Below are positions 32,260 through 59,504 of a DNA stretch of 64,000 nucleotides, piece after piece. The notes beneath the pieces are model-generated. The model was not told the DNA's origin. It made no database searches and saw only the letters and a list, made by a program, of their open reading frames with translations. The translations under genes and the position numbers were made by a program. The stretch is from an uncultured Pseudomonadota bacterium (lineage in GTDB: Bacteria > Vulcanimicrobiota > Vulcanimicrobiia > Eremiobacterales > Eremiobacteraceae). Position 1 is the stretch's first letter, and each line of letters starts with the position of its first letter. Where the stretch lies: positions 288,001-352,000 of the forward strand of contig CAVTNB010000003.1 of NCBI GenBank assembly GCA_963736005.1, given 5' to 3'.

Positions 32260-32316
32260 GCAACAGCCCGCGACAACAATGAGTCTCCTATAGGGACGTT
32301 CTTCGGGGGCGCAAGG

Positions 32317-32357
32317 TGGCGTCAGAACTGCTCCGTTTTTCCGCATGCCAACACCCC
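32317..32357. repeat. degenerate right-end TIR copy (type C)
   Basis: TGGCGTCAGAActgcTCCgtTTTtCCGC...CCA..ACCCC aligns with 46679-46721 in the same orientation. Confidence 0.7.
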
Positions 32358-32602
32358 CAGATTCACGGTGGGGTAGTTAGACTTGCGCCGGAAATGCCGC
32401 ATTATCTGCAATCAAAGCGAGAATTTGTCTGAGCTTAAGCTCGCACTGCTGAAAAACGTGAGTTGCCCCCCCTGTTCCCAAAACACCAGCATTTCCAGCG
32501 CAAGTTAAGGCAGAGCGTTCCGACGTCTCCTTGAACATCTCTTGAGACCTCGTTGAGCAAAGCTTTAGGACTTTCATGGCGCTCACCTGGTATAGTTCGC
32601 GG

Positions 32603-33289
32603 ATGAGAAAAGTACTCAGACTCGCACTTGTCAGCGCCAGTCTATGGCTAGCCGCATGCGGCGGCGGAGGTAGTTCACTGCCCGCACCGGGTGAGACCCC
32701 ATCTCCTGGCCCCTCGCGTAGCCCGTTGCCTTTCTTGCCTCTCAAGGTCGGCAATACATGGACTTATGCGTGCTACCTGGGCACCCCGGTGCCGGGAGCG
32801 TCAACATTCCCCAAGACCAACCAGGTGATCGGCTCAACAACCGTTGGCACCACAGTGACGTACGAGTACCAAGAGCAGCTTCCCACTTCTCCCACAACGG
32901 GCAGCACTCAGATACAGCTGCTCGCTAACGATACGAATGGTAACGCCCTTCTATATGGCTATATGGCAAATCCGACTGCATCACCGATGGCAGTGACACC
33001 GACGGTTATCATTCCCCATGTTCCCGGCCCTCCGCTTACATCGTTCTATGATTATCCCGCCCAAGGAGGCGGAACAATCAGCCGCGTGTTCTGCTGCACA
33101 GGCAATACAAACCTCACGGTCTTCGGCGTTCTTCCGGTCAGCGAATATTTCGACGGCTCTCAGGTGTTGTCGTCGACAACCGACGGCTATGGCTATGAAA
33201 TTGGCAAAGGCGCCATGGAAGAAGTGCACAACTCCAATAACGCGAGTCCAAAAGTCGACTGCCTAATCACAGCCACGCCCTCGCCATAG
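32603..33289 (+). CDS. lipoprotein, hypothetical
   Basis: Lipobox LAAC, GGGG linker, PLKVGNTWTY motif. Confidence 0.75.
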   Translation: MRKVLRLALVSASLWLAACGGGGSSLPAPGETPSPGPSRSPLPFLPLKVGNTWTYACYLGTPVPGASTFPKTNQVIGSTTVGTTVTYEYQEQLPTSPTTGSTQIQLLANDTNGNALLYGYMANPTASPMAVTPTVIIPHVPGPPLTSFYDYPAQGGGTISRVFCCTGNTNLTVFGVLPVSEYFDGSQVLSSTTDGYGYEIGKGAMEEVHNSNNASPKVDCLITATPSP

Positions 33290-33404
33290 ATGTAGCGTCA
33301 GCACGCGTTTACGACGTCCTGGCCGCTTGTTCGTCAAGACTTCATGGCGCCAAGAAGGGCCAATCTGCGAGCGACACAGCCGATGTCGCGGCCCATGATA
33401 AGTT

Positions 33405-33432
33405 TCGGGCCATCGGTTAACCGATGGCCCGA
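33405..33432. terminator. perfect 28-bp palindrome between convergent genes
   Basis: TCGGGCCATCGGTTAACCGATGGCCCGA. Confidence 0.65.
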
Positions 33433-33452
33433 GGTTTGTGACCCGATCGTTC

Positions 33453-36400
33453 TTACATCTTGAACTGGAGTTGGAAAGTCATTTGGAACGGGTTGAATCC
33501 ACCTGCGTATGGTTGGTTGAGGTAAGGATAATTGTATTGTGGGATTGCCGGCGCAACGTTCCCCACAGGATCGTTTGGCCCCGTACCGTTCCAGAAGTTC
33601 GATACGGCAAGGCCGTTTGCACTATAGAAGCAGGTTTGATTGCCAGGTGGAAACGCTTTGGTCCATGGTGTCGAGGAACCGCCGAAGCATGTGTTGAGGA
33701 TGTTCGCAAAGATTATACGCCCGGTAACCGTGGGGCTGATCTCTGCACTCACTTGAGCCGCAAGATTGAGTAACCACGGCTGTCTGTACTGACCAACTGA
33801 ATCGAATGTGCCAGTTGTTGGATTGGGAATCGCAAGCAAGCCGCCATTAACAAGCGACGCGCCGCAGGTGACGAAGTTTGCCTTACCAGGGTTACCGTCG
33901 GGTACTCCCGCTGCGCCCTGGTTTTGGCCACACGTCCTTGGATCGTAACCAATGATGTCAGTCGGGTCACCGTAATTATCTCCCGACAGCAGCGAGAATA
34001 TCGGACTAATCGAGAATCTCTGATGCTTGAAGGCGAGGTATCCGTGGAATAGATATGGCCACACATTTGAGTTTGCGCCGTTTAGCGCCCCACTCGGAAA
34101 CGTTTGATACGGCAAGTACGATCCATTCCGATCCAGATCTGGTTGCCTCGGATCAAAATAGTAGGGGTTGATAATCGTGCTGCCCGTCGCCGAGGGACTC
34201 AATGTTATGTTAGAACCGGAGACGATGCATTCGGACGGCGCGGCCACGCCGCCATCGTAGCACGGCGCGCCTTTGAGACCTTGAACGTTTCCAGCCGACG
34301 TGAGTGCGTTGAAGCCGTCGATGAAGCCGTTCAAAACGTCGATTCCATTGGTTCCATTGGGTGTGTCGAGCAGCTTCACTGTTGCGTGGGTGTACGTAAA
34401 CGAGAACTGGCCCGATAGACCATCGGCACCTGGGTTGCCACCACTAATCGAGAATTCGACACCCTGCGCTTGTTCGTTACCGTACGGGAAGCCGCTAGCA
34501 AAGTTGGGTCCCAGCGTTACTGTTCCATACTCGTCGTGCGACGACCGGAAGAACGGCGACAAACGAAAGGCCCAAGTCGAATGGGGAATTCGCTGCTCCA
34601 GCGAAAGATCGTAATTATTAGCTGTCACCGGCGGCAAATCGTGCCGAGGCGTGGTGAACCCCAAACCCCAGAAGTTCACAAAATTGAATGCTGCCGCATT
34701 CTTGCCGGCTCCCGGCGCATACAAGTATTCTGTGAACGCCGTCTCAACCGGTTGGGCATAACGGCCGTAATTGAACCGAATGACCGTGTCATCGCTCAAC
34801 GAGTAGGTGCCACCAAAGCGGGGTAGCCATTCACTATGATCGATGGGGCCGCTGATCGAGTTGGTAAACAACAAGTGTCCGTCGAGGCCATCGGGATGAA
34901 CCGTCGGCTTCCCGGTGATCGGGCTGTTCGGGCAGGTCAAATCGATGTACGGCGCAGCCGGTGGCGCCTGCAGTGGGCCAAGCGGCAGGCGCACGGGCTG
35001 TCCTGTCGCTGGGTCGTAGCAATACTCCTGGGCGGCTGCGTGGAACCAGAAATTGTTGTCAGCCGTATCAGAATTTGCCAAGTCATATTTGTAGTTCTCG
35101 AATCGTATCCCACCGTTTAACAAAAGCTTATCACTGACTTTAAATTCGTCCTGGAGACCGCCCGTGGTAAACGTAGGAGCGACCGTGTTATACGTGCCGG
35201 TCGGGCCCAAGAATGAGACGTGCCATGCAGCTCCTGCAGCCCCCGCGGCACCGACGATCGGGACTCCTCCCTGGGTTGGACTCGTGAACGTTCCTGTAGC
35301 CAGCGGATTGCTGCACCAGGTTCGCTCTCCGGCGGTAATTGGTGCCCCAGTATTCGGGTCGGTTCCCGCGACTGCTGCGTAACAATTGCCGCTGGCGTCG
35401 GATAACACGGTAGCCGACGAACCAGGTCCATTGAGCATTTCACTGTTGTTGAACCGTAGCGTGTGTGCCGTGGTGAGATTGGTCGTGAAGTTCAACAGAT
35501 TCCGGTCGCTTATCTGATCTTGGAACTGCAGTTCGCCGCCGTACGTGTGTGAAGACAACTCGTAATCGGGAGCGGCAAGCGTCGGAGCCAGCTGTGCGAG
35601 TCCAATTTCATAAGTGTACACGGTGTCAATTGGAGCGTTTTCCAGCCAATTCGAATACAGCGAATATGCAAAGAACCGAAGGTACGCATTCGAACCCATC
35701 GCGTGCGTATATTGGAACTTGCCGATCTCGTCGCTTACCGATATACCGTCACGCGCGTCGACGCCAATCGTCGAATTGAGCGCCCGGTTGGTTGGGGAGC
35801 TTGGGAACATGTACCGGATGTACGGAAGATTTGACCCATTATTTCCGGCACCGGTCGTCGTCACGGTCTGTCCGAAGCTCGTACCATTCGGCCACGCATA
35901 CCCATCAGCGTAACATGGTGCCGGAGTGGCACAAATGCCTAAGAGCGTAATCAGATTCAGAAACCCGGTTCCTCCTGTGAGGGTCGCGACATTTGCGAGG
36001 CCACCGTCATCATTAATGCTGCTGTAGTATTTTTGCGGTAGAAACGAGCCGCTGTACAGGGTTTGAATGTCGTCACGACTGCCATCGTGCGGGTGCGGAA
36101 TGCCAAAGTGGAGATTTACAACGGCCTCGTGGTCGGAGTAACCCGCGCCGCCATATGTTTCTCCGGTCCCGACATTGTCATTGATGACTTGCGGTAACCC
36201 CTTTATGAAACATCCCGCATTCGTGTTTGGATTCGGTATCGGCCACGTCAAGACTCCGCCAGGTCCAACGCTGCAATATGGAAGCGTTCCTTCGCCATAG
36301 AACGTAAAAAGTGCCGCATTGTACGACGAGGGGTTTAAGAAGGGCGAAGTTACGGATTGCCCACCATTAAACTGATCAAGGTAACGGATGCTTTCTGTGA

Positions 36401-37277
36401 AATTCGAGACGCCGGCATAGTATGTGAACTTACGGTCCGGAGTGGCACCGCCGATGTCGAGTTTTGCGCCATTCCAAAGCGACGGGGAACCAACGGAGAG
36501 ATCTAAGTTCGCAAAACCCGGATAGGTTCCAGTCTTGATCACTTGGTTTATGAAACCGGAGACCGTTGACGTGGACGAACTCGCCGGGGCACCCCCCGTA
36601 TACACTTCTATTTGCTCGTTGCCCAACGTTGACAACGTGTCGCCGTTGTACTGGTCAAATGCACGATTTACGGGCACGCCGTCATATTCATATCCAACCT
36701 CAGTGTAGTTGCCCCCGTGGATGAACACGGTTTGACCCCAGCCAGCGTTGCTCGAGAAGTGATAGATGCCAGGGACGTTATCGAGCGCCGAGTATGCATT
36801 TTCCAGGTTATTACCACCGCCGGACGCTTGGACCGCTTGAATCTGCGTCGCGTTCATCGTGTAGACGTTCGAAGTTTGGCTCCTGCTGACAAGCGATGTC
36901 GACGCGCCCAAGACAGTTACTTTTCCCAGGGTCGCAACGGTTCTGCGAGTTACAAGGTTGACCGTTTGCACCTGGTCGGCAACGACGGTGACGCCCAATT
37001 GAACGACGGAATCGTATCCTTCTTTGCTGGCGGTCACCGTGTACGTGTCGGCTGCGAGAGACAGCATCGCATAGTGTCCATGCGAGTCAGTAAGCGCCGT
37101 AGAGCTTTGTGATGGTGAAGTGGCCGCAACACGGGCACTTGTAATTGGCGTTCCATCGGTGAGAGAAACATTACCATTGATTGCCCCAGTTGTACCCGCC
37201 AGTGTCCTTGTTGCCTGGAAAGTAAACAACACTAGGGCTACCAATATACCTACACGGTATAAGCTCCTTACTAGCAT
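33453..37277 (-). CDS. TonB-dependent receptor with N-terminal carboxypeptidase regulatory-like domain (Oar-like)
   Basis: Signal peptide, AGTTG.ING, TD..G.Y, YEYDGVPVNR plug, GFINQVIKTGTYPG, PRFGGTY barrel strands. Confidence 0.9.
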   Translation of the reverse strand: MLVRSLYRVGILVALVLFTFQATRTLAGTTGAINGNVSLTDGTPITSARVAATSPSQSSTALTDSHGHYAMLSLAADTYTVTASKEGYDSVVQLGVTVVADQVQTVNLVTRRTVATLGKVTVLGASTSLVSRSQTSNVYTMNATQIQAVQASGGGNNLENAYSALDNVPGIYHFSSNAGWGQTVFIHGGNYTEVGYEYDGVPVNRAFDQYNGDTLSTLGNEQIEVYTGGAPASSSTSTVSGFINQVIKTGTYPGFANLDLSVGSPSLWNGAKLDIGGATPDRKFTYYAGVSNFTESIRYLDQFNGGQSVTSPFLNPSSYNAALFTFYGEGTLPYCSVGPGGVLTWPIPNPNTNAGCFIKGLPQVINDNVGTGETYGGAGYSDHEAVVNLHFGIPHPHDGSRDDIQTLYSGSFLPQKYYSSINDDGGLANVATLTGGTGFLNLITLLGICATPAPCYADGYAWPNGTSFGQTVTTTGAGNNGSNLPYIRYMFPSSPTNRALNSTIGVDARDGISVSDEIGKFQYTHAMGSNAYLRFFAYSLYSNWLENAPIDTVYTYEIGLAQLAPTLAAPDYELSSHTYGGELQFQDQISDRNLLNFTTNLTTAHTLRFNNSEMLNGPGSSATVLSDASGNCYAAVAGTDPNTGAPITAGERTWCSNPLATGTFTSPTQGGVPIVGAAGAAGAAWHVSFLGPTGTYNTVAPTFTTGGLQDEFKVSDKLLLNGGIRFENYKYDLANSDTADNNFWFHAAAQEYCYDPATGQPVRLPLGPLQAPPAAPYIDLTCPNSPITGKPTVHPDGLDGHLLFTNSISGPIDHSEWLPRFGGTYSLSDDTVIRFNYGRYAQPVETAFTEYLYAPGAGKNAAAFNFVNFWGLGFTTPRHDLPPVTANNYDLSLEQRIPHSTWAFRLSPFFRSSHDEYGTVTLGPNFASGFPYGNEQAQGVEFSISGGNPGADGLSGQFSFTYTHATVKLLDTPNGTNGIDVLNGFIDGFNALTSAGNVQGLKGAPCYDGGVAAPSECIVSGSNITLSPSATGSTIINPYYFDPRQPDLDRNGSYLPYQTFPSGALNGANSNVWPYLFHGYLAFKHQRFSISPIFSLLSGDNYGDPTDIIGYDPRTCGQNQGAAGVPDGNPGKANFVTCGASLVNGGLLAIPNPTTGTFDSVGQYRQPWLLNLAAQVSAEISPTVTGRIIFANILNTCFGGSSTPWTKAFPPGNQTCFYSANGLAVSNFWNGTGPNDPVGNVAPAIPQYNYPYLNQPYAGGFNPFQMTFQLQFKM

Positions 37278-37841
37278 GAGGGACCCCTTTCTGCACTGTG
37301 CATGAGAGAGGGTACACGTCACGTCGCGGGCGCGTGCCCGCAGCGTAGACGCGGACATCGGCCTTCCCCCACGAAAGGTCAATTTCAGCGCGTTAATTAT
37401 GCGGTAAGCTCCCTTTAATCCTTTACTGAAAAAAGTAAAAAGGGCTTGGATTTATGCCAGGGTTTCGACCACAATTTCAGCGTTTATGTAGATGCCGATC
37501 GATGGTGTGAATTTTTCCGCTGGTCTTTCAACCGACGAACGACGCATCTATGATGCGAACGGGTACCCCTGCCACACCGAAGGCCTACACATTCTTGAAC
37601 GGTAACTTGCAATCAGTTTACCAACCATAGGTATCTAACGACCCACTCGCCGTGCCCAACTGTAACGCAGGGGATGTTATCGGCGACTCTATTCCCGGAG
37701 GCAGCAGCATAACAGAGGAACACCAGCGTACTTGGTCTAGCATAAGTGCAGGGCTCTATATATGACACTCTATGTCGAGTATAGCGAGGTAGGATTGACG
37801 TTGTCGGAAAGACGTCACCTCATGGCGACTAATCGAGGTAT

Positions 37842-38333
37842 ATGACGAATAATAGCACCTCCGAGCGTGATGGCCGCAAGGACTTTGATTTTCTCATCGG
37901 GACCTGGCGCACCCATTACAAACGCCTTTCCCAACCGCTTAGCCAAAGTCACGATTGGTACGAATGCGACGGCACCTCGGTCGTTCGCTCCTTATGGGAT
38001 GGTAGCGCAAATATCGAGGAGGGCGACCTTCGATGTCCAAAGGAGTACATTCGCAGCCTGACGCTTCGCGTATACAGCGCCACATCACACCAATGGTCGC
38101 TTTACTGGGGAACAGAAAAACGAGGCTTGGCACCAGGTGCGCAGGTGGGACATTTCGATGATAACGGTTTGGGCGAATTCTTCGCAGACGAGACGTTCGC
38201 AGGCAAGGTAATCGTCGTGCGTTATCAGTGGAAGGTACCGAGTGGCGATCGCCCCCACTTTGAACAAGCATTTTCCGAGGACAAAGGCAAAACGTGGGAA
38301 ACGAATTGGATTTGCGACTACACGCGCACATGA
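37842..38333 (+). CDS. DUF1579-like protein
   Basis: DFDFLIGTW, TLR.Y, W..YW, EQAFS.D.GKTWETNW. Confidence 0.85.
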   Translation: MTNNSTSERDGRKDFDFLIGTWRTHYKRLSQPLSQSHDWYECDGTSVVRSLWDGSANIEEGDLRCPKEYIRSLTLRVYSATSHQWSLYWGTEKRGLAPGAQVGHFDDNGLGEFFADETFAGKVIVVRYQWKVPSGDRPHFEQAFSEDKGKTWETNWICDYTRT

Positions 38334-38548
38334 CTGGAGGCCACAACCGGACGTTTGGGTTGGATCCATTTGATTCAACCCGTGTCTGATCGAATATTTA
38401 ACAATAATGCCTTCCGCTAACGACTTCAAACAGATCTAGGCCATCCATGCATACAGTGCGGGTTGGTGCGTGGGAAAAAGCGGTGAGGCCTTCCTCAGTA
38501 AGGCCGCTGTAGCTGACGAACAATCCCCGGGTCCACTGCGCTCTGCGT

Positions 38549-39067
38549 TCAGTTTTCAGGAGAATTCGTAGGCGCTAGAATAGGGCGTTGTCGGCGGGTC
38601 CTGTCGACGCCCGAGGCGGAAAGGATCGCATTAACGTCGTTTATCAAAGCGAGGGTGAGCACACTATTGGGCGCAGGCGCGCAAGCGAGATCGGGCGATC
38701 TCCAGCCGAGCCATTGGATGTACGCCGTCGTTGCATTCCCGGCGTACGTCCCGCAAAACTCTTTCGCCGCCGCATTCCCGTCGCGCGCCGCTTTGAGATC
38801 AGCGAAGAACCGGTGAGCGAGCGAGGCCGAAATCGTAAAGGTTTTTACGGGGCCATGCGTCGCTCTCCCGCGATCTTGCAGCGTGAGATCGGCGTTGCCG
38901 TCGGCCCACACGTCCATTTTGTATCCCGACCAATCCGTCGAACCCGAATCGACGACCGTCGCACCGTCGCGCGCCGGCGTGTTCGCCGCGCAAACGGCAA
39001 GCGGTAACACCATCAACGATAAAGCAAATGCCACGCGAGCGATTCGCAAGCTAAAAGACTTGTTCAT
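38549..39067 (-). CDS. secreted hypothetical protein
   Basis: GGAGGGG RBS, signal peptide, DSGST...GY, SPDL.C. Confidence 0.7.
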
Positions 39068-39230
39068 TTCCCCTCCTAAAAATAGCCCAGCACTCAGTCA
39101 GCGAAGTCGTTGAAGCGTTCGTCAATGAAGTGCCAGTCTAGCGTGCCGAAGCCGCTTGTTTACCCGATCCGCAGAAGCGACAAATCGTAGTTTTTTATCG
39201 CGGCTTCGACGACACGATTCTGGTTGTCAA

Positions 39231-40274
39231 TTACGGAACGAATCTTCCGATCTTGTTGCTCGAGCCCTCGGTGATCCAGAGATTGCCGTCGTGCCCGACC
39301 GATATACCGGTTGGATTGCTGCCGAAGGCGGCGGCTGGGTACTCAGTGATGGTCCCGGCAAGCGTGCTTTTTCCTATGCTGCCGTCTCCCTCGACGAACC
39401 AGATATTGCCATCAGGCCCGGCGGTGATTCCGAGCGGGTTACTGCCGACGGTGGGGCCTGGGAACTCAGTGATGACCCCGGCCGTCGTGATCTTTGCGAC
39501 CTTGGAGGTCGCGACCTCAGTGAACCAGAGGTTGCCGTCGGGTCCGGCGGCGATGCGCCCAGGCGCTGAACCGGCGGAGGGGATAGAGAACTCGGTGACG
39601 CTGCCCGCGGTCGTGATCCTTCCGATCTTATTGGCTATTGCCTCGATGAACCAGAGATTGCCGTCGGGCCCGGCCGTGATATCCACGAGACCTGGGTTGG
39701 TGGTGGGGAGCGCGAACTCGGTGACGGCGCCAGCGGTCGTCATCCTTCCGATCTTACCGCCGAGGTTTTCGGCGAACCAGAGATTGCCGTCAGGCCCGGC
39801 GGTAATCGCGATTGGAAGGGTTGTGGAAACGGGGAACTCTGTGATGGCGCCGGCGGTCGTGATCCTCCCGATGTCATCGCCGGCGGTGGCAATCTTGACG
39901 AACCAGAGATTACCGTCGGGCCCAGCGGTGATACCGAAAGGGATGTCGCCGCCGGTGGCGGGGATAGGGAACTCAGTGATGGTCCCGCCGGGTGTGATCC
40001 TTCCGATTTTGTTCGCCCCGTGTTCGGTGAACCAGAGATTGCCGTCGGACCCAGCTGCTATACCATAAGGAAAGCTGTTGGCCGTCGGTATCGCATACTC
40101 TGCGACCAAGCACGAGCGGCACGGCGTCGGCGTCGGTGTTGAATGGGGTGGTGGACCCTGAAACGCGCTTGCGCCCCCGCCACCACCGCATCCGGCGACA
40201 GCAAGCGCCCCGAATAAGATTCCGACAAGAGGGATGGAAAGGGCCTCGTGCAGTCCTGCCGATGGTCTCCGCAT
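39231..40274 (-). CDS. Vgb (virginiamycin B lyase)-like beta-propeller lipoprotein
   Basis: Lipobox AGC; seven GI.AGPDGNLWF.E...KIGRIT..G.ITEF blades. Confidence 0.9.
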   Translation of the reverse strand: MRRPSAGLHEALSIPLVGILFGALAVAGCGGGGGASAFQGPPPHSTPTPTPCRSCLVAEYAIPTANSFPYGIAAGSDGNLWFTEHGANKIGRITPGGTITEFPIPATGGDIPFGITAGPDGNLWFVKIATAGDDIGRITTAGAITEFPVSTTLPIAITAGPDGNLWFAENLGGKIGRMTTAGAVTEFALPTTNPGLVDITAGPDGNLWFIEAIANKIGRITTAGSVTEFSIPSAGSAPGRIAAGPDGNLWFTEVATSKVAKITTAGVITEFPGPTVGSNPLGITAGPDGNIWFVEGDGSIGKSTLAGTITEYPAAAFGSNPTGISVGHDGNLWITEGSSNKIGRFVP

Positions 40275-40431
40275 ATCAAATCTCCTCGTCAATGGTGGGG
40301 TTCCTGTGCAAATTTTAGTACACGCGGCTCGTCGGCACATCCGTAAACTTACGTAATATTACGGACGCTCTTGGCCGGTCATTTGCCCTATAATCGTCAC
40401 GGCGGTCAAAGCCTAGAATCGTGAGCACCAT

Positions 40432-40926
40432 GTGATCGACGACCCATTAACCGCTGACGAGCGGGTGCAACAGTTTTGGGATGCGTACGCAGCTTCCGCT
40501 CGAGTAGGCGTTGAAACGTTCACGGTGGTGAGGTTCGGCGATAGCTCTGATCTCGCCGATGAACTGGCCACACAGGTCGTTGCCGGTGAGAAGCGCGCAA
40601 CGACCAATCTTCTGCGAGATTACACCGAGCTCGGCAAGCCCATGCCCAAGCCTGGGTGCTTTGGCGTGGTGATAGACGGCAAGAACTCGCCGCGTTGCAT
40701 CGTTCACATACTACAAGTCGACATCAAGCCTCTTGGCGACGTCGATGAGAGCTTTGCCCGGGATGAAGGGGGCGGCGACCGCAGCCTTGAGTGGTGGCAA
40801 TCCGCCCACGCACGCTATTTCAAAAGGCAGGGTGCCCGCGAGGGGTTCGCGGTTGACGACGGCACCGAGGTTATTCTTGCACGATTTGAGGTTGTGTGGC
40901 CCCTTGAGCTTTCAGACCGACCCTAG
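40432..40926 (+). CDS. ASCH domain protein
   Basis: FGDS..LADEL...V..G.KRAT, FA.DEG.GDRSL.WW..AH..YF. Confidence 0.92.
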   Translation: MIDDPLTADERVQQFWDAYAASARVGVETFTVVRFGDSSDLADELATQVVAGEKRATTNLLRDYTELGKPMPKPGCFGVVIDGKNSPRCIVHILQVDIKPLGDVDESFARDEGGGDRSLEWWQSAHARYFKRQGAREGFAVDDGTEVILARFEVVWPLELSDRP

Positions 40927-41097
40927 TCCTGTAATCAGCCACCCCGAAAGGCCCACGAATCTTCACTGTGCGGGCTCGCTTTATAAAATCGCCGCGCAAA
41001 TCGTTAACGGGCGTTGTCGTGGCGATCGTGGAATATGCATGCCCGGCGTCCCAAGGTGGTCGCTTGAGTTTGGGTTTTGGTGTAACACAAACCGGAC

Positions 41098-43539
41098 ATG
41101 GACGTTGCCAAGACGACGACAACCACACTCCTCTCTCCCCTCACAAAGCGGGAGCAAGAAGTGTTGGAGCTTATGGCATTCGGACTTGCCAACAAAGAGA
41201 TCGCCGACAAACTGTCATTGAGCCGGCGCACCGTCGAATCGCACATCGATCGATTGCTTGGGAAACTCAACGCGCCGACCCGAGCACGTGCGGTCGTCGA
41301 GGCCGGACGGGCTGGTCTGCTTGGCGGTCAGACCCTGAAGAACGCCGCCTATTCGGCAAACGACCGTCCTAACAACCTGCCGTTGCAGCTGACGACGCTT
41401 TTGGGTCGCGAGCAAGATCTGGTTGAGGCGAAGTCCTTACTTGAAGCCCATCGCCTCGTCACCATGTCGGGATCGGGTGGCGTCGGCAAGACGCGGCTTG
41501 CGTTGCGGGTAGGCGTCGATCTCCTTGAGCAATATCCCAACGGCGCCTGGTTGTGTGATTTTTCCCCAATCTCAGATCCGGGGCTTGTTTCCAGCGCCGT
41601 AGCAAAAGCGTTGGTTGTTCGCGAGCGACAAGATCGTCTGCTTGTCGAGTCTATCGTCGACAGCTTAAAGCGCAAACAAGCCTTACTGATTTTTGACAAT
41701 TGCGAACACGTCCTGGATGCGACTGCGGAACTCGTCGACGCAATCTTGCATAACTGCCCCAACATCCGAATTCTCGCGACCTCGCGCCAAGCGTTGGGCA
41801 TCGTAGGGGAGCTGGTATATCGGGTTCGCTCACTTGCAGTGCCCGACTCAACCGAAGGTTTGAAAGCCGACGAGGGCTTGCGCTATGGAGCCATTGCTCT
41901 TTTTGTCGACCGAACGCAGGCGTCGGATGCCGGCTTTGCTTTCACCGACGAGTACGCACCCATCATTGCTGAGATCTGTTCTCGCTTGGACGGTATTCCA
42001 CTGGCCATTGAACTGGCAGCGACGAGAAGCAAGGTCATCAACATTCAGAGCTTAGCCCGGAGTCTGGACGATCGCTTCAAGGTGCTGACGACAGGGGGTC
42101 GCACGGCTCTGCCTCGCCATAAGACTTTGGCCGCGCTCATCAGTTGGAGCTACGACCTGCTCGCCGCTCACGAGCAGGCGCTCTTTATGCGCTTAGGCAT
42201 CTTTGCCGGAGGCTTCAGTCTGGCTGCGGCTCGAGTGGTCTGCTGCGGCGATGGTCTCGATGAGATCGACATTCTGGATCTGCTGTCGTCATTGACCGAC
42301 AAGTCGTTGGTCGTCGCTGACACCGGCGGCGAGCACGAACGCTATCGCCTGCTCGAATCCACACGCGCCTATGCGTTGGAGAAGCTCGCGGCTGCAGGTG
42401 ACCGCGAGCGGCTGGCGCGCCGTCACGCCGAGTATTTCCGCGACCAGGCGCAAGAGTCTGACAAACGTTACGATACGGAATTGATTGGACGGCTCGCGAA
42501 CGCGGCTGGGGAACTAGACAACTACCGAGCCGCATTGGAGTGGTCGGTTGCCGACGGGCACGATGCGGTGCTGGGCGGTGTCGTCGCTGGGTCGCTGGAG
42601 CGGCTCTGGCTTGACGGCGGCCTAGCGGCGGAGGGACGTTATTGGATCGAACGTGCGCAAGCGGGCCTTAGCGAATCAGCGCATCCACAGCCGGCGGCCC
42701 GGCTGTGGCGCGCGCTGACCCGCCTGTCCTCAGGCACGCGCAAGCGCGACTACGCGGAGCGAGCCTTCACGCTGTACCAGTCTGTGGGCGACGGCCATGG
42801 GGCGGCCCGGGCGCTCCTCGAGCTTGGGCATGCTCTCTATCAAATGGGCCGCTTCGAGGAATCAAGTGAGGCGGTCGCACGCGCGCTTGCGGCGCTGCAA
42901 AAATACGGGGATAAACGAGGAGTGGCTCGGTGCCTTGGCCGTCAGGCGGACATCTATCGGTCTCGCGGCGATGTCGCTACGGGGCGCGAGCTGTATACCC
43001 AGGCGCTTGAGGCATTCAAGGCCCTTGGAGACGAGGACGGGACAACCATGGTGTTGGCAAATCTCGCGGAGGCCGAATTCAGAGAGGATCATGTTGAGCA
43101 AGCGCTGCGCTTAGCGAGCGAGGCCCTGGAGATTAACGCTCGTGGGAAGAACGCGACGAACTTGGCGCTTGAATCCGTCAACAGCGCTGCGTATTGCATT
43201 GCGCTGGGAAAGCTGGATCGCGCACGTGACGTCGCGCGCGAGGGACTGCGTTGGGCACGACAAGCGCAAGATGCACTAAATATCGCACTCGCATTGCAGC
43301 ATTTTGCGCTGCTCGGGGCGTTGCACCGAGAAGTGGATATTGCGGCGCGGCTCATCGGTTACGTCAATGTGCAGCTCAAAGAGCTCGGGTCGGAGCGTGA
43401 GTACACCGAAAAGTGGGGCTACGAGAAGCTGATGACCGGACTACACGAGCGACTGAGTGAGGCCGAGATAGAAAAGCTCGCGGCCGAAGGCGCGGTGTGG
43501 TCGGAAGATCAGGCGATCGAAGAAGCACTTAAGGTCTAG
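41098..43539 (+). CDS. LuxR-HTH + STAND ATPase + TPR regulator
   Basis: LTKREQEVL...NKEIA; GSGGVGKTRL; DNCEH; LDGIPLAIELAA; TPR tail. Confidence 0.93.
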   Translation: MDVAKTTTTTLLSPLTKREQEVLELMAFGLANKEIADKLSLSRRTVESHIDRLLGKLNAPTRARAVVEAGRAGLLGGQTLKNAAYSANDRPNNLPLQLTTLLGREQDLVEAKSLLEAHRLVTMSGSGGVGKTRLALRVGVDLLEQYPNGAWLCDFSPISDPGLVSSAVAKALVVRERQDRLLVESIVDSLKRKQALLIFDNCEHVLDATAELVDAILHNCPNIRILATSRQALGIVGELVYRVRSLAVPDSTEGLKADEGLRYGAIALFVDRTQASDAGFAFTDEYAPIIAEICSRLDGIPLAIELAATRSKVINIQSLARSLDDRFKVLTTGGRTALPRHKTLAALISWSYDLLAAHEQALFMRLGIFAGGFSLAAARVVCCGDGLDEIDILDLLSSLTDKSLVVADTGGEHERYRLLESTRAYALEKLAAAGDRERLARRHAEYFRDQAQESDKRYDTELIGRLANAAGELDNYRAALEWSVADGHDAVLGGVVAGSLERLWLDGGLAAEGRYWIERAQAGLSESAHPQPAARLWRALTRLSSGTRKRDYAERAFTLYQSVGDGHGAARALLELGHALYQMGRFEESSEAVARALAALQKYGDKRGVARCLGRQADIYRSRGDVATGRELYTQALEAFKALGDEDGTTMVLANLAEAEFREDHVEQALRLASEALEINARGKNATNLALESVNSAAYCIALGKLDRARDVAREGLRWARQAQDALNIALALQHFALLGALHREVDIAARLIGYVNVQLKELGSEREYTEKWGYEKLMTGLHERLSEAEIEKLAAEGAVWSEDQAIEEALKV

Positions 43540-43715
43540 ACTCGCAAGCAGATATCAGCAAGACTAGTTCTTTATGTCGAGGGCAGCACGAATAGTAGGG
43601 TGTTCCCAAAACCGCCGCATTTTGAACGCAAGTTTATCTACCCAGACGTTTTGACCGGGGTATAGTGGAACGCGGGAAAATGGACAACTCTTGACGCCAG
43701 TAACCTCGTTCATTC

Positions 43716-43898
43716 AAACGTCCGGTGCCTGCGAACCAACGTCCGATGCCCCTGCAATTGCGATCAATTGGTTGCACGTAGCGAACCGGTGAAACGTCCG
43801 ACGCACACGCTTTTTCCCGATAGAGCGCTCCTTTTATGGCACTTCACCCTTGCTACGGCATTGCGTCTGCAAACGCAATCAAACGGCCAAACGTCCGG
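43716..43898 (-). repeat. four AACGTCCG subterminal boxes
   Basis: Copies at 43716, 43738, 43792 and 43889. Confidence 0.85.
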
Positions 43899-43941
43899 CT
43901 CGATGCCCAGTACAGAGCGTAACTAATACCTGAAAGGCGAA

Positions 43942-44136
43942 CTAACTCCGCGCCTTGGCGCACTCAGGGCACGTGTTGTAAACACCAGGTCCTTGCTGCC
44001 CCCGCATCATCTTCCACTGCGCAGCAGTTCCTGGAGTAATCTTCGTTGTGCAGCGACCGGCAACGTGGGACTCGGATGGGCACCCACCACATCGGCATGC
44101 GACGTCTCCCTTTTGATCGATTCCGAATTTAATCAT
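43942..44136 (-). CDS. small Cys-rich putative Zn-finger protein
   Basis: AGAGGA RBS; CRCGGC..H...C...CPEC in 64 aa. Confidence 0.55.
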   Translation of the reverse strand: MIKFGIDQKGDVACRCGGCPSESHVAGRCTTKITPGTAAQWKMMRGQQGPGVYNTCPECAKARS

Positions 44137-44429
44137 ATCTCATTCCTCTTTTAAACGCTCCGTAAAAACAAAAGGCGAAACGACCTCTTTGCGGCCATTT
44201 CGCCTCGGCTTCCACACCGTTACAAGCGTGGGCTACGGAGTGCTGTGTTGGTTCGCGGGATCTCTGATTGCACCTTGCTTTTTCTTGTACCATCGGGTGA
44301 GTATTGGATGTTGCTTTAGCCGATGTGATCACCCACGGCTGGCGTCAGAACTAGACGGTTGTAATTCGCAAGCGCGACAAACGTCATCTTTTTTGAGCCG
44401 AAAAAGATGACTCTAAGCGGTGATCAACC

Positions 44430-45038
44430 CTAGCTGGGCAGGAGCACCAAGTCTGCCGCTTCCTCAGCATCTTTGAGGAGCGTCTTGCGCGGCGTGCCTA
44501 TCCGCGCACGCACGGTCAGGCCACGAGCAAAATCCGTAACTTGGATCGCGCGCACGGCTACCGGAAAGTCAGGCGGAATGTCCCCCGCACAGATCCCGTC
44601 GCGGAAACGGCGCTCCACCAGCGCCACGGCGCCCGCGACCGTACTCTGCAGGAACCGCCGAACCTCAGCGTCGTTCAACAGCGGCGCGACGCACACCAGA
44701 AGGCAGCCCCGGGCGGACCCTTTCTCGGTCGCGCTTGCGACGGCGTACCTCAGAAAGCTTGCGAGCGAGTCGCGCAGAGCCTGCGGCGCGAGGAGTGCCT
44801 TCGCGGCGAGAGCGCCCTTCCTCTCGGCGTACGCGTGGAGGACACGCAAGAATATCTTCCGCTTGGACCCAAAAACTGAATACAGACTCGGCCGCCCGAC
44901 TCCCATCCCGGCGACGAGATCGTCGATCGTCACTCCGTCGTAGCCTTTCAACCAGAACACCTGGGTCGCTTTTTCCAGCGCGTCCCTCTCGTCGAAGCTG
45001 CGCGGTCGTCCACGTGGCCTGGCGGTATTTTGAAACAT
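44430..45038 (-). CDS. TetR family regulator
   Basis: RGRPRSFD, FW.KGY, GVGRPSLYSVFGSK, RGCL. Confidence 0.93.
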   Translation of the reverse strand: MFQNTARPRGRPRSFDERDALEKATQVFWLKGYDGVTIDDLVAGMGVGRPSLYSVFGSKRKIFLRVLHAYAERKGALAAKALLAPQALRDSLASFLRYAVASATEKGSARGCLLVCVAPLLNDAEVRRFLQSTVAGAVALVERRFRDGICAGDIPPDFPVAVRAIQVTDFARGLTVRARIGTPRKTLLKDAEEAADLVLLPS

Positions 45039-45168
45039 TTGGTTCGAAACTCCTTGTTCTTGGTCATCCAATCCATTATAGTACGGAAAGGTTCGAAATT
45101 GGCAAGTCGACCCCTGGCCTCGCGGGGGCCTCACGACCCGACCTTTCCCCTTCACCACGGAGACGCCC

Positions 45169-46143
45169 ATGGAACATTCAATCGCTCTCGTCACCGGCAC
45201 CACCTCCGGACTTGGACATGCGGCAGCCCGCATGCTAGCCGCGGAGGGCTACCGCGAGGTCATCGTCACCGGGCGCAGCCTGGCCCGGGTACAGGAAACG
45301 GCAGCTGGGCTCGCAGCTGAGACCAAGACGCAGGTTTTTACACCGCTAGAGCTGGATCTGGACTCGCCGTCTAGCGTTCAATCCGCACTCGCCGAGCTCG
45401 TCAAGCGAGGTCGGCCGGTCGATTTCCTACTGCTAAATGCAGGGATGGTCGGAGGTAAGAAGCGCGTGGTCACTGCGGCGGGCGTCGAGGCTTCTCAGGC
45501 CCCGCTAATCGGCCATCATCAACTGACTGTTGGGTTGCTCCGCGCCAACCTGCTGAGCCCCGACGCGCGGATTGTTATCGCCGGCGCGGAACCTGCCCGA
45601 GGGGACGTGCCCCTGTTCAGCTTCACCGACGTGGCGGCCTTCGCGGCCAAACGCCACCAGGGTGACCGAACCGCCGCTATTGAAGCCCTGCTGCGCAACG
45701 GGCCGAACGTGAAGTACGTGCCCAACCGGGCGTATGCCGATGCGAAGCTCATCATCGCTTGGTGGGTCGCGGCGCTGGCGCGCCGGCTACCCTCCGGCAT
45801 GGCCGTATACGCCGTCTCGCCCGGTAGCGCGCCCAACACCAAGGCGGTGCGTAACGCTGGCCCGGCCTTGAAGTGGCTGATGATTCCGCTGGTGAAGCTC
45901 ATCCCCGGCATGTCTCAGACGCCGGAGACCGCGGCTCGTCGCTACCTCCAGGCATCGGAGTTCGGAACCGACGTGTCGGGGCAATTCTTCGCCTCGGCGC
46001 CCAAGAAGCTCATCGGCCCAATTGAGGCAATGCGCCACCCACACTTGCACGATCGCGCCAACCAGGAAGCCGCGTGGCAGGCCGTCGTCAAGGTCTCTGG
46101 CGTCGACTTTTCTTATCCCGCATCCTTGAGCGCGTTGTCCTGA
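45169..46143 (+). CDS. SDR family oxidoreductase
   Basis: TGTTSGLG, LNAG, YADAK catalytic motif. Confidence 0.92.
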   Translation: MEHSIALVTGTTSGLGHAAARMLAAEGYREVIVTGRSLARVQETAAGLAAETKTQVFTPLELDLDSPSSVQSALAELVKRGRPVDFLLLNAGMVGGKKRVVTAAGVEASQAPLIGHHQLTVGLLRANLLSPDARIVIAGAEPARGDVPLFSFTDVAAFAAKRHQGDRTAAIEALLRNGPNVKYVPNRAYADAKLIIAWWVAALARRLPSGMAVYAVSPGSAPNTKAVRNAGPALKWLMIPLVKLIPGMSQTPETAARRYLQASEFGTDVSGQFFASAPKKLIGPIEAMRHPHLHDRANQEAAWQAVVKVSGVDFSYPASLSALS

Positions 46144-46190
46144 AGGAGCGCCGGTTGGCGGACGGATACTGGTGGCAACGGGTTGGACCA

Positions 46191-46662
46191 CCGGACGTTG
46201 GCCGCGGTGACGAATCAAAGCCGAATGACCGGACGTTTGTCGGCGGATCCAAAACCGGAAGTTGGGGCTGCTTGTGTAGTATCCCAAGCGAAAAGACACT
46301 ATTGCCATTAGGCACTGAAACCCGGACGTTGCCCCGTTTTATGGCGTTTTGTAGATTGCATTGCACATTGCAACCCTTGAATCGCGGCAAAGCCCCGGGA
46401 TTCACCGGGGGAAGGCGTATGCCCCGGACGTTATTCAGACGCTTGATAACCATTCGTATGATCGCGATTGCAAGTACCGGACGTTTGATTGATCGTCTCC
46501 TGAATAATCTCGACAATTCGTAACTCAATCGCCTAGCTTGAAATTGAATTCAAAATCGACCGCAAGCCCGCAAATATACAATTGTGGGCAATGCGATCAT
46601 CGTAAGCAATTAAGTAATCAAATCGGGAGGCCCGGACGTTAGCAGCTGGGCACCGGACGTTT
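46191..46662 (+). repeat. seven CCGGACGTT subterminal boxes
   Basis: Copies at 46191, 46229, 46322, 46424, 46477, 46632 and 46653. Confidence 0.9.
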
Positions 46663-46797
46663 GGCAGATCAGCCCGACTGGCGTCAGAAGTTGTCCAATT
46701 TCCCGCGCTCCACTATACCCCCCAGACGTTCGACCGCGGAGGAGAAATCGTTGGCGGTTTATAATTAGCCACTAAACCATTAGGAGCTGAACTACTC

Positions 46798-47349
46798 ATG
46801 AAAACCACTCCCCGGACGGACGGCGAAGCACCGACCGACATGGTGTTGTTGCGCCGTGGCGTTGCCGGAATTTGTGACCGCTTTAGCGGCAGCGATTACG
46901 ACACCATGAACACATTTCTCACGCTGAAGCGCACCGCTGCAGACCTTGAAAATCTTTCGACTGAGTACTGCAAGCAGGGCGACGTTTCGCCCGGGCGTTT
47001 GGGCGTGCTCATGGTTTTAAACGCCAATCCTGAAAAGCAAATACCTCTTAGCGAAATTGGCCAATACCTGGTTGTGTCGCGGCCGAACATTACCGGTCTC
47101 ATCGACGGCCTGGTCGACGAAGGTCTCGTCAAGCGCATCAATCACCCCGAGGATAGGCGCATGATCCTCGCGCAACTCACCCCTCAGGGGCGAGACTTTA
47201 TGCGAAAATTCGTACCATTCCATTTGCGAGTGGTCAGTAGCGCGATGGCCGGGTTGACAAGAAACGAAAAGCGCCAACTCGTATCTCTCCTCGACAAGCT
47301 TCGCCTCCATCTACACGGCGTTAAGATCCCACATCTAGAGGAAGCATAA
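46798..47349 (+). CDS. MarR family regulator
   Basis: VSRPNITGLIDGL...GLVKR..HPEDRR....LT..G. Confidence 0.93.
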   Translation: MKTTPRTDGEAPTDMVLLRRGVAGICDRFSGSDYDTMNTFLTLKRTAADLENLSTEYCKQGDVSPGRLGVLMVLNANPEKQIPLSEIGQYLVVSRPNITGLIDGLVDEGLVKRINHPEDRRMILAQLTPQGRDFMRKFVPFHLRVVSSAMAGLTRNEKRQLVSLLDKLRLHLHGVKIPHLEEA

Positions 47350-47352
47350 GTC

Positions 47353-48564
47353 ATGGCAGTCGCCGCACGAGCACCAGAACCCGTGACCGGTCGCAAGCGC
47401 CGCGTTCTTATTCCCGTTATTGCTGTTTTGGTCGTCATCGGACTTTTTTATGGCATCCGCTTCCTGATATTTTCAGCCCATCACGTTGGTACGGACGACG
47501 CTGAAATTGGCGGCAACATCACAACGATTAGCGCGAAGGTCAAAGGCCAGGTTGTCGCAGTCTACGTGAGCGAAAACCAGTTCGTTCACCGCGGTGACAG
47601 GCTTATTCAACTAGACGATCGCGACTACAAAGTAGCGCTGGCACAATCGCAAGCGGCCTACGAACAGGCCGTCGCGAACCTGCAAGCGGCAACCACGGCG
47701 GTTCCCCAGCAGTCCGCGATGACCGCGGCTCAAACCGCGCAGGCCCAAGCGGGCATCTCACAATCATCAAGCGGGGTACTCAACGCACAGGAACGGGCGG
47801 ACTCAGCGCGCGCCAACTACATGGCCGCCCAAGCCAACGCGGTGAAAGCCGCGAACGACGTTACTCGTGCTCGCACCCTCGCGTCGGAAGGCGCGATCGC
47901 CAAATCAGACCTTGATTCTGCCCAGGCGGCCTACGTGACTGCCCTCGCCAACCGCGACGCCGCGAGACAAGCCATCGATGCTGCGGAAGCCGCTGTCAGC
48001 CAGGCGCAGGCCCAAGTTGTCGGCAGCCAAGCGCAACTCGAGCAGGCGCAAACGGGCACGCAGACAACCGAAATCAAGTCGGCCCAAGCGCACGTGAGCG
48101 CGGCGCAAGTGCAAGCCGCGGCCGCAGCACTTGCCAACGCAAGACTGCAGGAATCATACACGAGGATCACTGCGCCTGTGGACGGCGTCGTCAGTAAGAA
48201 GTCTGTCAATGTCGGCGACCAGGTCTCCGTCGGGCAGCCGCTGATGGCCCTGGCCGATCAGACGCATCTCTGGGTTGACGCAAATCTTAAAGAGACGCAA
48301 ATCTCAAACGTCCGCGTTGGACAGCCAGTAGACATCACGGTTGACGCGTTCCCGCATCGTGTATTTAAAGGTAGCGTCGCAAGCATTTCGGCGGCGACCG
48401 GCGCTACCTTCGCCCTGATCCCACCCGATAACGCGAGCGGCAACTTCACCAAAGTCGTGCAGCGCATACCCGTGCGCATCGCGATCGATCCAAGCTCCGA
48501 TCCCGAGCACTTGCTGCGTCAAGGGCTGTCCGTCGAAGTCAGCATCGACACGACTAACCATTAG
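47353..48564 (+). CDS. emrA: EmrA-type HlyD adaptor
   Basis: TDDA, coiled coil, ANLKETQ, PPDNASGNFTKVVQRIPVRI. Confidence 0.9.
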   Translation: MAVAARAPEPVTGRKRRVLIPVIAVLVVIGLFYGIRFLIFSAHHVGTDDAEIGGNITTISAKVKGQVVAVYVSENQFVHRGDRLIQLDDRDYKVALAQSQAAYEQAVANLQAATTAVPQQSAMTAAQTAQAQAGISQSSSGVLNAQERADSARANYMAAQANAVKAANDVTRARTLASEGAIAKSDLDSAQAAYVTALANRDAARQAIDAAEAAVSQAQAQVVGSQAQLEQAQTGTQTTEIKSAQAHVSAAQVQAAAAALANARLQESYTRITAPVDGVVSKKSVNVGDQVSVGQPLMALADQTHLWVDANLKETQISNVRVGQPVDITVDAFPHRVFKGSVASISAATGATFALIPPDNASGNFTKVVQRIPVRIAIDPSSDPEHLLRQGLSVEVSIDTTNH

Positions 48565-48575
48565 AGATTAGACTA

Positions 48576-48601
48576 GGCGGACCTCAAGGTCCGCCGCTAC
48601 A
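48576..48601 (-). repeat. GTAG-type REP palindrome (family 1)
   Basis: GGCGGACCTCAAGGTCCGCCGCTACA. Confidence 0.8.
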
Positions 48602-48610
48602 GACGCGATT

Positions 48611-50179: not shown

Positions 50180-50199
50180 ACCCTACTTCAGGAAAAACC

Positions 50200-50225
50200 C
50201 GCGCGAATAAATTCGCGCGACTACA
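50200..50225 (-). repeat. GTAG-type REP palindrome (family 2)
   Basis: CGCGCGAATAAATTCGCGCGACTACA, identical to 59434 and 59468. Confidence 0.85.
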
Positions 50226-50227
50226 AG

Positions 50228-51745: not shown

Positions 51746-51830
51746 GTGTTGTGCGTCTTCGCTCCAAAGGACTAGGCTGTTGCGACGTTGTGCCTATGGG
51801 CCCTGTATTTTATTCCTCGAAAGTTCGAGG

Positions 51831-55751: not shown

Positions 55752-55758
55752 CCGTTTA

Positions 55759-55784
55759 AGCGGACCTAAAGGTCCGCTGCTACA
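55759..55784 (-). repeat. GTAG-type REP palindrome (family 1)
   Basis: AGCGGACCTAAAGGTCCGCTGCTACA, identical to 59395. Confidence 0.85.
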
Positions 55785-59389: not shown

Positions 59390-59394
59390 CGCAA

Positions 59395-59493
59395 AGCGGA
59401 CCTAAAGGTCCGCTGCTACATTTATAGGACGAACGCGCGAATAAATTCGCGCGACTACATTGGGGAGCGCGCGAATAAATTCGCGCGACTACA
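59395..59493 (-). repeat. cluster of three REP palindromes
   Basis: Family 1 at 59395-59420; family 2 at 59434-59459 and 59468-59493. Confidence 0.85.
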
Positions 59494-59504
59494 TGGGCGT
59501 GGGT

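Follow-up and report, generated by a model that had tools for sequence, protein, structure and literature searches.

Which enzyme, if any, has stacked the genes that lie unit behind unit, each between inverted terminal sequences, upstream of a marR drug-efflux operon in an uncultured soil bacterium of the Eremiobacteraceae? The window analysed here is a 64-kb stretch (G000:C3:288001-352000) of this organism's own genome, G000 (2.84 Mb, 84% complete); the other G-labels denote genomes of relatives, and L-labels individual loci or stretches, metagenome contigs included. The region upstream of marR is probably a fossil array of tandem units that descend from bacterial casposons, carry cargo and are non-autonomous. 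Arrays built of the same ends and bearing target duplications recur at the marR site of relatives with differing cargo, and autonomous relatives encoding Cas1 and a family-B DNA polymerase (PolB) occur in the same family. Casposons are known as big, uncommon transposons that replicate themselves, and they attract interest chiefly because the CRISPR adaptation machinery presumably descends from them.

Ends and flanking repeats in the window

Two types of ends, B and C, delimit the units of the array (coordinates in Table 1). The unit adjoining the marR promoter holds a TetR-family regulator and a short-chain dehydrogenase (SDR) between terminal inverted repeats (TIRs) of type C, complementary at 41 of 45 positions (91%); the chance expectation for a pair at least this good, over all position pairs of the window, is ~2e-10. 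A second, inner inverted block of this element is 31 nt long and 77% complementary. Beside the two genes lie non-coding arms of ~730 and ~520 nt, in which AACGTCCGG (at most one mismatch) occurs 12 times, facing inwards, with four copies on the left and eight on the right of this 3-kb element, against 17 copies in the other 61 kb; these repeats had been overlooked in the preliminary description. The element is flanked by a direct repeat of 14-15 nt, CCAGACGTTTTGACC (43642-43656) and CCAGACGTTCGACC (46722-46735), which differ by one indel and one change. This duplication resembles the subterminal repeat (AACGTCTGG), a likeness that may be a targeting clue or chance.

Re-reading of the letters confirmed the coordinates and layout proposed beforehand for the three junctions, J1 to J3. 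Their mutual similarity exceeded chance only in part. In a longest-common-subsequence test against 20,000 random window pairs, the spacers of J2 and J3 (common subsequence of 12) and those of J1 and J3 were significantly alike (P = 0.0012 and P = 0.014, respectively), and the C pair has the low chance expectation given above, but the similarity of J1 to J2 was not significant (P = 0.64), nor was that of the window's B pair taken alone (23/30 positions, with ~39 such pairs expected by chance over all pairs). The B pair gains credibility only from relatives, its B end having been met again in G004, G047 and other genomes. A profile of C ends, which contained the window's own copies, gave E values of 8.1e-13 and 3.4e-12 for the intact C ends in the whole genome, followed by the orphan end at J1 (Table 1) and then by a match at 2.9; on this measure the orphan can be taken as a genuine decayed C end. 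Whole-genome profile and pattern searches placed the type-B, type-C and orphan ends of G000 at this locus only.

A third B copy, inverted and partial, was likewise missed by the preliminary description; in its inner part it matches the B right end at 82% identity. The inner motif of B ends is an imperfect palindrome that is retained where termini are gone. Extra copies of this motif (AAATGCGGCACTTTTGGGAACAC) without a GGGTAG terminus were seen elsewhere (L035 6110-6137, L062 11471-11495, L088 1117 and 2021, and others), each just past the stop of a single small gene and orientated like the nearest full end.

Segment 41008-43644, made up of the LuxR regulator gene and the B right end, matches its counterpart in G047, which belongs to another genus, at 92.3% identity, versus 78% for that in G002 of the same genus, and homology to G047 ends at base 43644, one base beyond the B terminus. 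A left end for a LuxR cassette at ~41008 was sought and rejected, only a 78-nt insertion in the intergenic region being present there. The last 140 nt of the regulator gene (43400-43540) have dozens of matches in relatives, at 70-88% DNA identity and several per genome, which suggests a large family of paralogous regulator genes whose 3' ends are unusually well conserved. Counterparts of the TetR and SDR genes stand as a pair, at 82-92% identity, in five genomes from other genera and families (SDR 92% to G047), and no ends of type B or C surround them there within ~1.5 kb of flank on each side; the window's pair is apparently a captured host gene pair.

The same ends at marR promoters of relatives

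C ends were found in 6/385 genomes of the class, and the C-end pattern in four loci among 185,579 species genomes, three of them from Eremiobacterota (L043 and L044 at marR, and a G002 contig with a C end at marR); a match in Labrenzia was judged to be chance given its unrelated context. The B inner motif was present in 12/385 class genomes, that is, in 7 of the 31 members of the window's family besides G000 and in 4/348 of the large sister family, with two matches of the reversed control pattern in the same 385 genomes; the B pattern was also found in 19 metagenome stretches. An identity as a high-copy miniature inverted-repeat transposable element or repetitive extragenic palindrome (REP) was rejected, given the single locus in G000 and these low counts.

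The terminus of an end (B, C or a further type) lies 37-40 nt upstream of the marR TATAAT in nine of the 13 marR loci examined, where the same end types bound different cargo. One 14-16-nt stretch separates the end from the -35 position, and the duplication stops 23-24 nt before the -10 box. No clear end was recognised at marR in G003, G012 and G010, and the G001 contig stops short of the promoter; the G008 genome in this comparison is flagged as unpublished. The cargo next to marR differs from genome to genome, with TetR and SDR in G000, a MarR-like protein and a cupin in G002, a membrane protein in G022 and a sulfatase-like protein in G044, although for the G044 element neither a second end nor a duplication copy appeared within 6 kb. 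In metagenome contigs (111 open reading frames, ORFs, called in 16 loci, 75 of them run through Pfam; L078, L083 and L085 excluded as duplicates of L077, L079 and G009) the cargo included AbiE and HicB modules, an Mrr-type nuclease, NmrA, a sulfatase and Vgb-lyase paralogues. IS3-type transposase genes (HTH_21, rve and rve_3) lie inside two marR arrays, at L063 3731-4591 (G007) and L074 3947-4813, between 80 nt and 3 kb from a B end. Ends were also found away from marR (G009).

Relatives carry intact versions of the duplications that are slightly decayed in the window. Thus, a 1268-bp unit of G002 (same genus), with a B left and a C right end, has GCTACAGCACCGAC on both sides (14/14); a B...B unit in L073 has CGCGCAGGCGCCTTA twice (15/15), and L076 has TATTGTTCCCAACTAG twice (16/16). 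A C...C unit in L070 is flanked by (C)TGTTCGCCTGACG twice and followed by another left end, and a ~9-kb C...B unit of G009 by CGTTCCTAAGGGC and CGTTCCTAAAGGGC (13/14 with one indel). Abutted ends with 13-16-nt spacers occur in G047, L082, L086 and L087. The proposal of long target duplications, of the ~14-15 bp known from casposons, is thus borne out by the window and by relatives, where they reach 14-16 nt and are perfect in G002, L073 and L076. B and C ends pair with each other, and end types are exchanged on otherwise homologous interiors (L070 vs. L082). The earlier idea of a shared, CAGA-containing site did not hold, as the duplication sequence is different in every genome and has no common motif.

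Units with intact duplications abut the promoter in G000, G002, L073 (whose contig stops after the -35 box) and L076, and in units farther from it, termini or partners are missing. Such a pattern is consistent with addition next to the promoter and agrees with the earlier placement of the newest unit nearest marR.

Elements with Cas1 and a polymerase, and coordinates of all features

Two members of the family, G007 and G020, encode a solitary Cas1 beside a protein of ~1000 aa. Comparison of G020 with G005 revealed an 18.7-kb insertion carrying Cas1 (464 aa) and a 984-aa polymerase between TIRs of 35 nt (86%) that start GGGATACTACAC and contain AAACGTCCGG; it is flanked by a perfect 14-bp duplication, CTTGGGTTCGCAGA (14/14), of which G005 has a single copy, the empty site. 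In G007, a 28.6-kb island relative to G022 contains a Cas1 and polymerase element of ~16.4 kb with 83-nt TIRs (84%) starting GGGGTTAATAAGG and with two AACGTCCGGTG repeats at its left and ten at its right side. The flanking sequence is (CC)GCGCACAACGCT, and one of the copies is followed directly by the left end of a second element, forming a tandem pair; no tRNA target was found for it. Both elements are complete casposons.

The ~1000-aa proteins of G007 and G020 are homologous (4e-110). Their family comprised 3441 cluster representatives at E <= 0.001 and has a consensus in which motifs Exo I-III and Pol A-C can be recognised; DNA_pol_B_2 was matched by 23/37 family members (best E = 1.1e-9), on which grounds the protein is assigned to the family-B polymerases. 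Homologues, many of them broken, occur in 80/385 class genomes, with adjacency to Cas1 checked in G007 and G020 only, and one that is truncated at the N terminus and has the YG and DTDS motifs lies in the marR array of G007 itself (E = 3e-33 to the casposon polymerase). For Cas1, NCBIfam returned generic Cas1 models only. The best solved-structure match of the G007 protein was 6OPM (E = 4e-18), an entry code that occurs in the paper on the Methanosarcina mazei casposase structure (PMC6977970; this and the other PMC papers are cited from extracts). Both Cas1 proteins have a C-terminal CxxC...CxxxC motif and a basic tail, a layout matching that of AceAut-C1, a family-3 casposon (PMC4046053).

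A 6.1-kb unit of G016 (L109, G016:C85, 3632-9771) has TIRs of the G007 type around a DNA glycosylase, a glyoxalase-like protein and a hydrolase. It lacks Cas1 and PolB, and neither gene was found in the G016 genome; past position 9771, a 12-16-nt spacer leads to an end of the G020 type (GGGGATACTACAC). Read from its sequence, this unit shows the principle of a non-autonomous derivative with G007-type ends.

The ends of these elements can be compared with those of the window. When C ends were aligned with G007 and G016 ends, a GGGGT start, a CTGRCGCYA block and AACGTCCGGT were common to them at similar distances, and G020 ends (GGGAT start) had only the AACGTCCGGT repeat in common with C ends; the AACGTCCGG subterminal repeats of the C element are shared with the ends of G007, G016 and G020. 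The 3' finishes here are ...CTATACCC(C), ...ATCTACCC and ...GTAGTATCCC, and the M. mazei casposon end seen in the crystal, integrated into a 14-bp target, finishes ...TATATCCC-3' (PMC6977970). B and C profiles gave no match on the Cas1 loci of G007 and G020, the link having come through the subterminal repeat and the island boundaries. The suggested tie to casposons is strengthened by these related ends, which enclose genes for Cas1 and a family-B polymerase and come with a 14-bp duplication and an empty site. Full-length elements with solitary cas1 and polB exist with related ends (G007 and G020), but none has B or C ends proper, and a single-copy site is available for G020 in G005, but there is no clean empty site at marR among the loci examined.

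The statement that the window has no integrase was upheld, Pfam recognising no integrase, transposase or recombinase among the 22 ORFs at 28-52 kb. Cas1 is absent from these ORFs and from the whole G000 genome (84% complete), and the G007 and G020 polymerases have no match in G000. Arrays of relatives and metagenome contigs (56 + 75 ORFs, Pfam) contain no transposase or recombinase except the IS3 genes of G007 and L074. Since G000 has no Cas1, polymerase or Tn3 transposase, the window's cassettes are non-autonomous and probably fossil.

Table 1. Positions of the array's features in the window and of the two Cas1 elements in their own genomes
Feature	Position	Strand	Remarks
Orphan decayed type-C end	32316..32357	-	Terminus 32357, interior leftward; nhmmer C-end profile E = 2.5e-9 genome-wide; subterminal GAACGTCC retained
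J1 spacer CAGATTCACGGT	32358..32369	.	14 nt (CCAGATTCACGGTG) when ends are counted as GGG/CCC
Type-B left end (GGGGTAGTTAGACTTGCG...)	32370..32413	+	B profile E = 1.6e-8; same family as left ends of G047 and G002
Internal inverted partial B copy	32472..32513	-	Inner motif retained, terminus gone; 34 nt at 82% to 43601-43634; E = 6.7e-9
Genes between B ends, region	32576..43539	.	Pfam; probably composite of older units
ORF237	within 32576..43539		Between B ends
TonB-dependent receptor	33453-37382	-	Pfam
Vgb-lyase family	39231-40340	-	Pfam
ASCH	40432-40926	+	Pfam
LuxR/NB-ARC/TPR regulator	41098-43539	+	Pfam
Type-B right end (...GTTTATCTACCC)	43600..43643	-	B profile E = 8.2e-10
J2 spacer (AGACGTTTTGACC)	43644..43656	.	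Left target-duplication copy of C element
Type-C left TIR	43657..43701	+	Longest inverted repeat of the window, 45 nt, 91%
Left subterminal repeats	43717..43898	+	4 copies of AACGTCCGR
TetR-family regulator, cargo	44430..45233	-	Pfam TetR_N 2.5e-11; longest ORF, real start probably later
SDR, cargo	45169..46143	+	Pfam adh_short 1.8e-16
Right subterminal repeats	46191..46661	-	8 copies of AACGTCCGG (at most 1 mismatch); orientation opposite to left arm
Type-C right TIR	46677..46721	-	Pairs with 43657-43701
Right target-duplication copy CCAGACGTTCGACC	46722..46735	.	
marR promoter to efflux operon	46736..50179	+	Fixed anchor side; TATAAT 24 nt past duplication
marR	46798-47349	+	Pfam
emrA-like	47353-48564	+	Pfam
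emrB-like MFS	48611-50179	+	Pfam
Start strings of B and C ends			GGGTAG or GGGTATAG
G007 casposon	G007:C3, L068 5924 to L095 2366		
G020 casposon	G020:C52, L069 3988 to L107 3703		

Other repeats of the window lie outside the array. A hairpin family (AGCGGACCTAAAGGTCCGCTGCTACA), REP- or terminator-like, follows genes in both orientations (48575-48601, 55715-55784, 58758-58790 and 59390-59422), and a second palindromic family (GCGCGAATAAATTCGCGCGACTACA) has three copies, two of them in tandem (50197-50229 and 59431-59497). Five copies of a repeat with a 36-nt period occupy 19951-20202, and an ORF of 1393 aa (51570-55751), with internal repeats of ~261 and 513-516 nt periods, probably encodes a repetitive surface protein.

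Competing explanations, known systems and meaning

Several results weigh against a casposon origin of the array. Searches for an autonomous element with B or C ends were unsuccessful, the C pattern being confined to its four loci among the species genomes; the 75 Pfam-scanned ORFs (of 111) around B-pattern metagenome loci include no Cas1 or PolB; and viral contigs gave 0 matches to the end patterns and to Cas1. Cas1 with the polymerase occurs in only 2/32 family genomes (G007 and G020) and is absent from the genomes with the best arrays (G000, G002, G009 and G047), and the polymerase had 0 matches among solved structures, either as single sequence or as profile. A profile built from G007 and G016 ends only ranks the two C ends first and second in G000, in the right orientation, with weak E values (0.17 and 0.78). 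B ends are without the AACGTCCGG repeat. At the same place, G000 and G002 carry different duplications (5/14 positions) between flanks that are 86-90% identical, so that extra events are needed, which would imply separate insertions into a fast-changing target. The 11-kb stretch between the B ends has no matching flanks; because of this, and because the gene order between the B ends is different in G002, it is probably a composite of older units.

The cassettes might instead have been moved by a transposase other than Cas1 that makes long duplications, such as a DDE enzyme of the kind known from Tn3-type mobile insertion cassettes, the likeness to casposon ends then being convergent. Tn3-family repeats look similar and start with a G run, as do the ~45-nt ends described here; the lack of Cas1 in the best-array genomes and the IS3-type rve genes near B ends in G007 and L074 would also suit such an enzyme. 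We nevertheless consider it unlikely. There is no 5-bp duplication at any junction, as previously stated, the repeats measuring 13-16 nt and the C element being flanked by TGACC and CCAGA; the Tn3 transposase (PF01526) had 0 matches in G000, with control genomes positive; the array ORFs contain no transposase save the two IS3 copies; and related ends with the same subterminal repeat flank elements with Cas1 and PolB. Tn3-family identity in particular was rejected on the absent 5-bp duplication and the absent TnpA.

Recombination by a tyrosine or serine enzyme, as in integrons or dif modules, is very unlikely: abutted ends and spacer would together be one recombination site and the direct repeats its crossover cores, but the repeats differ per genome and have no common core, the marR-side copy is without a second arm, and G020 and G005 display a true duplication of a single-copy target. 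Pfam scans of the arrays turned up no gene for a recombinase (no attC models were applied). What such a system would account for is the polarised, promoter-proximal order of cassettes with diverse accessory cargo, the imperfect palindromes formed by the junctions, and the swapping of end types between L070 and L082. We give hardly any credence to an absence of mobility, under which the ends would be conserved regulatory palindromes upstream of marR and the remainder ordinary rearrangement. An end at a fixed promoter distance in nine genomes agrees with it, as does a palindromic inner B motif that outlives lost termini; perfect 14-16-nt duplications around unrelated cargo, ends away from marR (G009), and a LuxR and B-end segment shared by two genera at 92% identity, up to one base past the terminus, do not.

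If the array derives from casposons, its growth may be pictured as follows. A Cas1-family integrase (casposase), provided in trans by an autonomous element with Cas1 and a family-B polymerase, would bind the ends of each unit, which start GGG(G)TA and in type C add the inward-facing AACGTCCGG repeats, and would link their termini, 3'-CCC, to the target strands at points 14-15 bp apart, giving rise to the flanking duplication. Insertions have used the same place repeatedly, the duplication ending 23-24 nt before the marR -10 box, and new units would therefore come to lie on the promoter side, with older ones displaced and decaying. The oldest would be the C-type unit of which only the end at J1 remains, the next the 11-kb stretch between B ends, and the youngest the TetR and SDR unit between C ends.

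Stacking of small accessory-gene cassettes in a polarised, promoter-proximal row is characteristic of integrons and of integrase-less attC clusters, which rely on attC/attI sites and a tyrosine recombinase. The window shares promoter-proximal stacking with them, and the enzyme is absent from the array in most genomes; its junctions, in contrast, are transposon ends with target duplications, and no tyrosine recombinase was detected in the array ORFs by Pfam. Tn7 inserts at a fixed distance at attTn7 by means of TnsABCD, makes 5-bp duplications and leaves decayed elements that accumulate. Fixed-distance insertion and decayed elements are common to Tn7-like islands and the arrays described here, in which 5-bp duplications and TnsABCD were not found; a comparison of casposons with Tn7 was also made in PMC4779613.

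Methanosarcina casposons form tandems that share one 14-bp duplication, leave solo ends and reuse a site specifically (PMC4779613). Adjacent elements, a shared 14-bp duplication, one reused site, solo ends and termini in CCC-3' thus link them to the present arrays, and their site-specific integration needs target-adjacent sequence (PMC4779613, PMC6977970). Their arrays consist of two autonomous or decayed full casposons at a tRNA-Leu or intergenic site, whereas here up to three or more units with heterogeneous end types and ordinary cargo stand at a promoter in a bacterium. Family-3 casposons of the AceAut-C1 type resemble the window's units in TIRs, ~15-nt duplications and intergenic insertion, and resemble the G007 and G020 elements in a Cas1 with a C-terminal zinc-binding motif and basic tail and in a family-B polymerase; published casposon TIRs range from 25 to 602 nt (PMC4046053). 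Unlike them, the window's units carry only cargo (TetR and SDR, and others), without Cas1 or polymerase, and are stacked at one promoter. G007 and G020 also differ from family 3 in having no HNH gene recognised by Pfam. With CRISPR arrays there would be in common a Cas1-family enzyme, growth at the leader side and a target duplicated by every insertion; kilobase cassettes with their own ends, a non-conserved 14-15-nt duplication and the lack of Cas2 and effector set the two apart.

Cargo-only units, heterogeneous ends that pair mutually, and repeated use of a single promoter in several genera of one bacterial phylum were not found in titles and abstract openings of the papers listed (casposon supplements may list solo or mini elements), nor did the collection searched contain a paper naming both casposon and Eremiobacter; in the extract of PMC6452270, the term non-autonomous refers to TnpB elements.

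Across a bacterial family, ordinary cargo lies between casposon-type ends, in units that form a polarised row at a single promoter. It is possible, although we judge it rather doubtful, that a Cas1-type integrase runs a platform for the acquisition of gene cassettes, adding regulators, detoxifying enzymes and defence genes promoter-proximally beside an efflux operon whose promoter region is leader-like; if true, the platform would be a present-day parallel to the step proposed between casposon and CRISPR array and an integron-like system based on a different enzyme. If a casposase does act in trans, Cas1-family enzymes would also build integron-like arrays of accessory genes, the leader-proximal growth of CRISPR would have a counterpart among transposons that is open to bench tests, and efflux-adjacent cargo would be exchangeable between genera, as the LuxR segment and SDR, 92% identical across genera, would illustrate.

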